Shown here: one piece after another, positions 19,316 through 20,866 of the stretch
Position numbering within the stretch: the first letter of the stretch is position 1
How the letters are laid out: each line of letters starts with the position of its first letter
From: Escherichia phage WPEC3
Direction: 5' to 3' (one strand)
Sequence record: PV611058
Length of the DNA stretch: 64,000 bases
Translations under genes and position numbers: made by a program
Notes under the pieces: model-generated
What the model saw: only the letters and a program-made list of their open reading frames with translations
What the model was told of the DNA's origin: nothing
Databases searched by the model: none

Positions 19316-20866
19316 TTAAACTATTTCGGTAGCACCATACTTAAAGTAAATTTCCTTAATCATTTCAAGATTATGGATGCTTGTAGTTTCAGACCAACCA
19401 TCCTCCATCAATTCACGTTCAATAATACCTTTCGTATTATGGATTTTAATATTTTCAGTTTGAAACAGTTTCTTACATTCAGTTTCGGCAGCAATACAAT
19501 CAACTGAATTTTCAAATTTAAAAGAGCTAATACGTTTTATATCATAATAACATTTTAAGTTTTGTTCATATTCACGACGACCGAGGATTGTTTCAATTCC
19601 ATATTTTAGCCCAATATATTCACCTGCATTACATATACCACTAATATATGCAATTTTTTGATTGCGATGTGCCTTACGAGGATTGCCACATCCACGCAAA
19701 TGTATAGATGGTGTTTGCCAGAATTCATCACCACTTTCTGGATCAATAATACACACATTAGTACGGGCATCAATATACTCTACTTTACTGTAATCATATT
19801 GTTCATCGTGAATTTCGTTAGCCCTGTTGATAAATTCATCAATTGACATTTTATTTTTCAGGCCAGTTGATATATTAGCACGATCATTATTACCACATCC
19901 CATCAAATGTGATGATGGTGTTTGCCAGAATTCACCATATACTGGATCTATAATACATACCTTAGTACTGTTGTTTACGTATACGACCTTACTATAATCA
20001 TACAGATTATCATGCACCAAATTGGCCTTCTCGATAAATTCATCAAGTGTTAAGCGTTTACTCTGTGCCGTTTTTTCAAAACCACGGATTGGGTTTCCAT
20101 GACCTTTCCAATGGTAGATTGGTTCTTGCCAGAATTCACCATATACTGGATCTACAATACATACCTTAGTCCATGCACCAGTATACTCCACTTTACTGTA
20201 GTCATATAAATGACCATGTACTGCACGAGAACGTTCAATAAAAACTTCGTTGGTGAATGTTTTATTTACTGAAGTTCCTATACGCCCACGTTCCATGTTA
20301 CCATGCTTGGATTTTAAATGGTCATATGGCGTTTGCCAGAATTCACCATACACTGGATCAATAATGCATACTGGAGTTTTACTATTAACATATTCTACGT
20401 TTGAATAATCGAACGTATTTCCAAAACGTTCGATAGCTTCAGCTATAAATGTTTCAGTTGTTTTTGATTTAAGTTTTTTACCATTTTCAATGGCACGTTG
20501 TGGGCTACCTGCACCTTTTAAATGGGAGCTGGGTTCTTGCCAGAATTCACCATACACTGGATCAATAATACATACCTTAGTGCTATTATTTTTATAAACA
20601 ACTTTACTATAATCATAGAGGTTGTTATGAACTTTTTCTGCTCGTTCTATAAACGTTTGGGTGGTTAATTTGCCAACACCTGAACGATATGGATTCCCCT
20701 GACCGCGAATGTGATGTGACGGAGTTTGCCAGAATTCACCATACACCGGATCAATAATGCATACTGGTTCTTTAGCTTTTACATACACTGCTTTTTCGTA
20801 ATTATAGAGATCACCATGTACATTTCGTGCAGCAATTAAAAAAGTTTCTTGGTCGGTAACACGCAT
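19316..20866 (-). CDS. Protein composed of six tandem ~85-aa repeats (motif F-I-x-x-A-x-x-V/I-H-x-x-x-Y-D/N-Y-S-K-V-x-Y...K-V-C-I-I-D-P-V-Y-G-E-F-W-Q-x-P-x-x-H-L-x-G-x-G-N-P), function unknown
   Basis: 516 aa; the motif CIIDPVYGEFWQTP...H..G.GNP recurs 6 times at regular spacing, followed by a ~110-aa non-repetitive C-terminal domain. Confidence 0.6.
   Translation of the reverse strand: MRVTDQETFLIAARNVHGDLYNYEKAVYVKAKEPVCIIDPVYGEFWQTPSHHIRGQGNPYRSGVGKLTTQTFIERAEKVHNNLYDYSKVVYKNNSTKVCIIDPVYGEFWQEPSSHLKGAGSPQRAIENGKKLKSKTTETFIAEAIERFGNTFDYSNVEYVNSKTPVCIIDPVYGEFWQTPYDHLKSKHGNMERGRIGTSVNKTFTNEVFIERSRAVHGHLYDYSKVEYTGAWTKVCIVDPVYGEFWQEPIYHWKGHGNPIRGFEKTAQSKRLTLDEFIEKANLVHDNLYDYSKVVYVNNSTKVCIIDPVYGEFWQTPSSHLMGCGNNDRANISTGLKNKMSIDEFINRANEIHDEQYDYSKVEYIDARTNVCIIDPESGDEFWQTPSIHLRGCGNPRKAHRNQKIAYISGICNAGEYIGLKYGIETILGRREYEQNLKCYYDIKRISSFKFENSVDCIAAETECKKLFQTENIKIHNTKGIIERELMEDGWSETTSIHNLEMIKEIYFKYGATEIV

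Follow-up and report, generated by a model that had tools for sequence, protein, structure and literature searches.

What does a phage do with a protein built from six copies of one small module, and why should the gene for it be present in one phage and missing from a close relative? The gene in question lies at positions 19316-20866 (minus strand) of the window, by which I mean the whole stretch of 64,000 nucleotides from Escherichia phage WPEC3 that was analysed. The window is AT-rich (GC about 35%), and around the gene it shares 90-98% identity with jumbo coliphages of the Asteriusvirus type, whose genomes are about 350 kb (among them CMSTMSU, EC.P1, ph0011, and Turkey3). By the ORF listing, the reading frame is complete and intact, encoding 516 amino acids plus a stop codon.

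The public record offers little help. Copies of the 516-aa protein are labelled only "hypothetical protein" (e.g., WP_210765671.1), and a homologue search finds a metagenomic protein, P0001, that is 98% identical. The full protein has no significant match amongst Pfam and NCBIfam models, and whether the query is the protein, one repeat or the C-terminal part, searches of Pfam, NCBIfam and PDB sequences return only noise (PNP_phzG_C and TUP1, for example). The PHROG collection does give a lead: the protein matches phrog_681, "endonuclease" (E = 2.7e-63), and after it phrog_559, "HNH endonuclease" (E = 3e-42). A sequence-only reading of this DNA had recognized the repeats and could place them in no named family. 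A family can be named, as argued below: an array of DUF723/DUF4379/CapR-like fingers followed by a T5orf172-like domain of the GIY-YIG type.

Six copies of a 68-residue unit

The protein contains the motif C[IV][IV]DP six times, with core-to-core spacings of 63, 68, 69, 68, and 68 residues, giving a period of 63-69 aa (189-207 nt) and a unit of about 68 aa. The sequence-only reading put the unit at about 85 residues, a value close to 516/6 that ignores the C-terminal domain of about 119 residues. It was right about the number of tandem copies, to which motif spacing, protein alignment, a DNA repeat search and tblastn all attest. Aligned as proteins, the six units show pairwise identities of 42-65%, and 16 columns are the same in all of them. 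A tblastn search with repeat 5 recovers the other five (E = 1e-18 to 1e-28) and finds no further copy elsewhere in the 64-kb window. At the level of DNA, six copies of 113 nt appear, 189-207 nt apart and 60-80% identical. Tandem Repeats Finder misses the six repeats, because the copies are too diverged at the DNA level. Internal periodicity had been named beforehand as the feature on which the idea of repeats should stand or fall, and both the DNA repeat search and the protein alignment find it. It is far beyond chance; together with tblastn, these two analyses rule out that the repeats are an accident or an artefact.

The copies are not all alike (all coordinates that follow are on the minus strand). 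Repeat 1 (aa 5-67; 20666..20854) is a DUF723/DUF4379-like module without zinc ligands, carrying D, Y, N, and R at the four ligand positions and YNYEKA as a variant of the core. Repeat 2 (aa 68-135; 20462..20665) has D, Y, S, and R at the same positions. Repeat 3 (aa 136-204; 20255..20461) is the most divergent: it has F in place of H13, KSKHGNM (within KSKHGNMER) in place of G.GNP, and a second half-site shifted by a one-residue insertion. Its ligand positions read D, Y, G, and E, and the insertion may have displaced its R. Repeats 4 (aa 205-272; 20051..20254) and 5 (aa 273-340; 19847..20050) both have D, Y, N, and R, the former with the core CIVDP. The core of repeat 6 (aa 341-397; 19676..19846; the whole unit is aa 341-408 when cut at the motif anchors) has D, S, N, and K, a one-residue insertion (DPESGDEF) and the sequence CIIDPESGDEFWQ. 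The core is thus not strictly invariant, contrary to what had been supposed, with repeats 3, 4, and 6 all departing from it. The claim of a distinct C-terminal domain holds: it covers about aa 398-516 (19319..19675).

Fingers without zinc

Where do the repeats come from? A homologue search with the full protein retrieves 7931 proteins, most of them annotated with PF05265 (DUF723) and PF14311 (DUF4379), the latter described as a "probable treble clef zinc finger". One of them, P0003, is matched by the 516-aa protein in phmmer with E = 5.9e-223 and itself scores 97 bits against DUF4379 and 70 bits against DUF723; over the zinc-bearing homologues P0003 and P0088 the scores are 54-97 bits and 70-76 bits, respectively. 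When one canonical DUF4379/DUF723 unit is set against each of the six repeats, the identity is 48-60% (E = 1e-14 to 1e-18). Over the same stretch, repeats of P0003- and P0088-type homologues read KV.IICPEHGEF.Q.P..HL.G.GCP.C and those of the window KVCIIDPVYGEFWQ.P..HL.G.GNP.R. Since the canonical unit aligns to every repeat and the homologues score on both HMMs, the homology of the repeats to DUF723/DUF4379, a CapR-like treble-clef finger, is secure on sequence grounds.

The Pfam models themselves do not see it. Despite their likeness to members of the two families, the repeats lack the defining C-x2-H...C-x2-C and fall below detection by both HMMs: even with E values as high as 10 allowed, hmmscan with PF05265 and PF14311 finds no match to the whole protein or to a single repeat. 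(A precomputed table does give PF05265 for the 98%-identical P0001, probably a sub-threshold match.) Other zinc-less proteins among the homologues escape the Pfam HMMs in the same way.

All four canonical ligands are replaced in all six repeats, which read DYNR, DYSR, DYGE, DYNR, DYNR, and DSNK in order. Repeats 1, 2, 4, and 5 have D-x2-Y...[N/S]-x2-R at the zinc positions; repeats 3 and 6 are altered further. The substitution is not peculiar to this protein. A table of ligand positions in 829 units from the 120 best homologues contains CHCC 614 times and D[Y/F]-x-x 107 times, and 103 of these 107 end in R (39 DYNR, 37 DYHR, 12 DYSR, and others). Hybrid combinations are almost absent. The zinc-less class amounts to about 13% of the units in these closest homologues and is present in 16 of the 120. 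An alignment of 123 units shows how strictly the class keeps its own residues: D in 50 of 50, Y or F in 48, N, H, or S in 48, and R in 49. It also shows what the zinc-bearing and zinc-less classes hold in common, namely F5, H13, Y17, Y19, S20, Y24, G39, F41, H48, and G51.

In about 100 units the four substitutions go closely together, and the remainder of the module is preserved; for these reasons I favor a compensated fold that would do without metal; presumably the modules are held together in some other manner, perhaps through an Asp-Arg pair. AlphaFold2, in a structure prediction that the sequence-only reading had called for, models repeat 5 with a pLDDT of 92.6.

Whether such modules would still bind DNA is a separate matter. 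The finger of CapR is the one of its kind for which sequence-specific DNA binding is known, and mutation of its four cysteines abolishes that binding (PMC8096241). By analogy with those mutants, zinc-less modules might bind DNA differently or not at all. One may go further and suppose that the zinc-less module is a natural, metal-independent redesign of the treble clef, in which a coordinated swap of C/H/C/C for D/Y/[N,H,S]/R keeps both fold and DNA binding, and that arrays of such modules make up a modular code for DNA recognition, which phages rearrange to give their nucleases new targets and which could perhaps be engineered to work without zinc. I offer this tentatively, as an idea whose chances fall somewhat short of even. 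If zinc-less modules do still bind DNA specifically, then side-chain interactions can stand in for a zinc site, and the repertoire of modular DNA-binding repeats grows.

The C-terminal domain

A profile built from four close homologues of the C-terminal domain matches about 496 clusters (50% identity), including 368 with E no higher than 1e-10. Among the 150 matches listed (proteins of 122-590 aa), the domain nearly always sits at the C-terminus, often directly after a zinc knuckle. In an alignment of 61 sequences, eight positions are invariant, Y10, K24, G26, R34, E64, D92, G93, and E96, corresponding in the protein to Y407, K421, G423, R431, E461, D489, G490, and E493. The family pattern may be written AYI...K[YF]GI...R..QN...AE.ECK...DGYTETT. 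The succession of Tyr, [YF]-G, Arg, and Glu resembles the GIY / YIG / Arg / Glu signature of the GIY-YIG superfamily and also the "KIGxT" form typical of T5orf172. Y407, R431, and E493, invariant in 61 of 61 sequences, come in the order expected of the catalytic residues of GIY-YIG enzymes. The second Tyr of the YIG motif (Y422 in this protein) is Phe in most members of the family.

The copy of the domain in the window matches neither Pfam T5orf172 nor MUG113, but other members of its family do so weakly: 26 of 61 match T5orf172 (best E = 9.6e-5) and 25 of 61 match MUG113 (best E = 3.5e-5). An hhalign comparison with the YKIGIT-type C-termini of other zinc-less homologues is likewise weak (probability 30%, E = 5.6e-4), and it lines up the K-x-G, R, and E motifs. 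The AlphaFold2 model of the domain (pLDDT 96, pTM 0.88) has a beta-beta-alpha-beta-alpha-alpha topology, that is, a GIY-YIG-like fold of beta-hairpin, helix, strand, and helices. Its best fold matches in the PDB are to SLX1. Amongst viral models (BFVD), Foldseek finds 56 matches at E up to 1e-3, under names such as CapR homology domain-, Zinc-ribbon domain-, and GIY-YIG domain-containing protein, Homing endonuclease, T5 Orf172 DNA-binding domain-containing protein, and ICP1 ORF88.

From its motifs and its predicted fold, I place the domain in the GIY-YIG superfamily, as a divergent, T5orf172-like member and a putative nuclease domain. Because Y, R, and E are invariant, it is plausible that it is catalytically competent.

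There are phage genes built on the same plan. Barth, Dunham and Seed (2023) found CapR, DUF723, or DUF4379 fingers, often in multiple copies, in 200 of 229 T5orf172 homing endonuclease genes, the repeats arranged as "beads on a string", up to six of them in phage Helene, and proposed that the repeats act together to determine specificity and promote recombination (PMC10448857). The protein considered here resembles these endonucleases of Vibrio phage ICP1 and its relatives in its N-terminal array of fingers, in its C-terminal T5orf172-like domain, the model of which matches ICP1 ORF88 and CapR-homology proteins by fold, and in that its gene is free-standing and lies at a boundary of genetic exchange (PMC10448857). 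It differs in that their fingers are zinc fingers, while all six modules here are without ligands, and in that its C-terminal domain is of a divergent "K[YF]GIE...DGYTETT" subfamily, to which the Pfam models T5orf172 and MUG113 respond weakly and, in this protein, not at all.

Other known systems are further removed. CapR, from the PLE satellite of V. cholerae, contains a related finger module, and there it is DNA-binding, but CapR has a single CxxC...CxC zinc finger with essential cysteines and no nuclease domain, and it acts as a repressor (PMC8096241). I-TevI and SegA-G of phage T4 have the reverse domain order, with the nuclease at the N-terminus. The DNA-binding part of I-TevI consists of one zinc finger, a minor-groove helix and a helix-turn-helix, in contrast to the array here, and the sequence similarity of these T4 proteins to the present one is negligible. 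The Hef-like endonucleases (Hef of phage U5, and the "Hef-like" genes of LIMEstone1, named after homologues in Acj9 and CP220) are akin in being free-standing phage endonuclease genes. The tblastn matches of the 516-aa protein include proteins of Campylobacter and ViI-type phages, groups in which Hef-like genes have been reported (PMC3296691).

Most likely, then, the protein is an unannotated addition to a known class, the T5orf172-family homing endonucleases with repeated finger arrays. Both the class and its architecture are already known in other phages. The literature searched mentions neither the fully zinc-less finger array nor the divergent C-terminal subfamily. Both are widespread in databases, and the zinc-less fingers are the one point that is even modestly new.

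A variable interval next to denV

The gene is flanked by denV, a homologue of T4 endonuclease V (21158-21595), and by a gene for an AAA-ATPase-like protein (18124-18897), all three on the minus strand. Comparison with related phages shows that what lies in between comes and goes. In EC.P1, 2186 bp of the window (18993-21178) are replaced by about 72 bp, with blastn breakpoints that join window position 18992 to position 2489 of the EC.P1 locus and window position 21179 to position 2562. What EC.P1 lacks is a 2.2-kb cassette (18993..21178) comprising a small open reading frame (orf71), a promoter, the endonuclease gene, a second small reading frame (orf65) and a scar. The denV gene of EC.P1 encodes a longer product, of 171 aa, and directly abuts the promoter of the ATPase gene.

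Turkey3 presents a different case. Its flank is 93% identical in DNA to that of the window up to position 20879, 13 nt before the ATG, and behind the same promoter lies another allele, with five zinc-less repeats and a C-terminal domain of the same type, 42% identical as protein. SHEFM2K carries an unrelated "homing endonuclease" of 474 aa in the slot beside the ATPase gene. Among the phage records of the collection searched, the same allele as in the window occurs only in CMSTMSU, in a record ridden with frameshifts. Presence and absence, replacement of one allele by another, and sharp breaks in homology at the borders of the gene fit the behavior expected of free-standing homing endonuclease genes. 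By this comparison, the interval between denV and the ATPase gene is a hotspot for the turnover of endonuclease genes in Asteriusvirus jumbo phages.

I propose that the gene at 19316..20866, carried by an Asteriusvirus-like jumbo coliphage, is probably just that, a free-standing homing endonuclease gene. According to this model, it would be transcribed early, from a sigma-70-type promoter of its own. The N-terminal 400 residues of the product would be a beads-on-a-string array whose six modules, each of about 68 aa, descend from a treble-clef zinc finger of the DUF723/DUF4379/CapR type. Binding DNA in a sequence-specific manner, the six modules would jointly read a long, asymmetric site, and the T5orf172-like GIY-YIG domain would cut beside that site in the DNA of co-infecting relatives without the gene, into which the cassette and its flanking markers would then be copied by recombinational repair. 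The model provides a protein that public databases call hypothetical with a functional label, putative free-standing homing endonuclease.

There are other ways to view the protein. The sequence-only reading took the conserved Cys, His, Asp, and Glu of the repeats as signs of a small metal- or nucleic-acid-binding module. The second half of that suggestion gains from the homology to DUF4379 and DUF723; the first founders on the loss of the ligands. That the repeats bind zinc or some other metal through these residues is very improbable: each of the four canonical ligands has been replaced, one of them by arginine, which is cationic and no ligand, and the cysteine that served as a clue (position 32, in VCIID) is L, C, I, T, or V in zinc-less homologues. 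Replaced by L, I, T, and V as it is, this cysteine appears from the alignment to mark a buried hydrophobic strand position and not a zinc ligand. What can be said for metal is that H13 and H48 are nearly invariant in both classes and D35 is invariant in the zinc-less class, so a non-canonical His/Asp site can be imagined. Zinc binding as such is rejected on the ligand analysis. It is scarcely credible, again, that this is an RNA-binding or ribosome-associated repeat protein. That notion would rest on analogy with trypanosome mitoribosome assembly factors, the only solved structures that resemble the repeat, and an RNA-binding role sits badly with the fusion to a nuclease-type domain and with the genomic context.

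A more serious contender, still an unlikely one, is that the gene descends from a homing endonuclease gene but no longer homes, its product having been domesticated as a sequence-specific DNA-binding regulator like CapR or as a nuclease like Odn of ICP1, directed against competitors, satellites, or host DNA. Proteins of this class have been co-opted repeatedly, as CapR and Odn attest (PMC8096241, PMC10448857). The zinc-less fingers, along with the change of the second catalytic Tyr to Phe in most of the family, could signal an altered function, and the allele is rare among sequenced phages. But CapR has no nuclease domain, and this protein retains a full nuclease-type domain with its invariant Y, R, and E. 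The presence or absence of the cassette and the replacement of alleles are typical of selfish endonuclease genes, and no evidence speaks for a satellite or any other specific target of a domesticated nuclease.

The homing endonuclease gene that I prefer to see here comes with its own signals for expression. A sigma-70-type promoter (20904..20932, minus strand) lies 38 nt upstream of the ATG, with TTGACT and TATTAT separated by 17 nt, an extended -10 TG and 10 of 12 matches to consensus. The -35 hexamer lies within a GC-rich stem-loop. By sequence reading, a Shine-Dalgarno-like AGGGA (20875..20879, minus strand) stands 8 nt upstream of the ATG. The two small reading frames of the cassette, both on the minus strand by the ORF listing, lie on either side: orf65 (65 aa; 19087..19284), perhaps not a genuine gene, directly after the endonuclease gene, and orf71 (71 aa; 20929..21144) upstream of the promoter, within the 93%-identical flank common to the window and Turkey3. 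A promoter scan ranks the endonuclease promoter third in the region, behind two stronger, equivalent elements before denV and the ATPase gene, and this third promoter belongs to an intergenic repeat family, D3/D5.

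Possible remains of earlier occupants beside denV

Within the cassette that carries the putative homing endonuclease gene there is a non-coding scar (~19000-19062, minus strand), which reads ILDSTRYKFTNNPGKQIVQDL followed by two stops. Its first half is a copy of the N-terminus of orf71 (20929-21144, MILDTSRYKFSNNP...), and the other half matches the tail (...ENPGKQIVQ...) at the C-terminus of the unrelated homing endonuclease of SHEFM2K, a related jumbo coliphage. This suggests that one endonuclease gene after another has sat in the slot between denV and the ATPase gene.

There is also the state of denV itself (T4 endonuclease V-like; 21158-21595, minus strand), whose product has 145 amino acids in the window as against 171, with an acidic tail, in EC.P1, a relative without the cassette. 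Homology between the two phages breaks off within the gene, 21 nt short of its 3' end, which indicates that insertion or exchange of the cassette rewrote the C-terminus of denV. Directly upstream of denV lies a 137-aa ORF (21650-22063, minus strand) with Cys-rich and HNH-like motifs (CITC...CKGC...HH.D...CSNHH), and could represent a further small endonuclease gene next to denV. It is present in EC.P1 as well.

A repeated intergenic element at the breakpoints

Five copies of an intergenic element are found in the window, all on the minus strand (18926-18958, 20904-20935, 21624-21656, 26246-26278 and 29289-29321), where none is expected by chance. Each has a GC-rich stem-loop (GGGTTGAC-N4-GTCAGCCC) with a run of Ts after it, and together these overlap the -35 hexamer of a sigma-70 promoter that is close to consensus (TTGAC.-17/18 nt-TATAAT). 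The elements directly adjoin the breakpoints of homology between related phages, at 20879 for Turkey3 and at 18992 for EC.P1. They resemble the promoter-early stem-loop cassettes (PeSL) that reportedly mediate gene shuffling in T4-type phages (Arbiol et al. 2010).

The endonuclease allele and its homologues

Only one phage record in the searched collection, Escherichia phage CMSTMSU (MH494197.1), has the window's allele of the endonuclease gene. There the gene is broken into several small "hypothetical protein" CDSs, yet its DNA is 98.5% identical to that of the window. Since the record is flagged UNVERIFIED_ORG, the breaks probably reflect frameshift errors in sequencing and not decay of the gene.

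Among the top 120 homologues, arrays of zinc-less finger repeats are fused mostly to T5orf172-like domains, while arrays with the canonical CHCC zinc ligands are fused mostly to PD-(D/E)XK/Vsr-like domains, P0117 being an exception to this pairing. Some homologues outside the window (in the set P0002, P0009-P0011 and P0043) combine seven or eight zinc-less units with one canonical CHCC unit.
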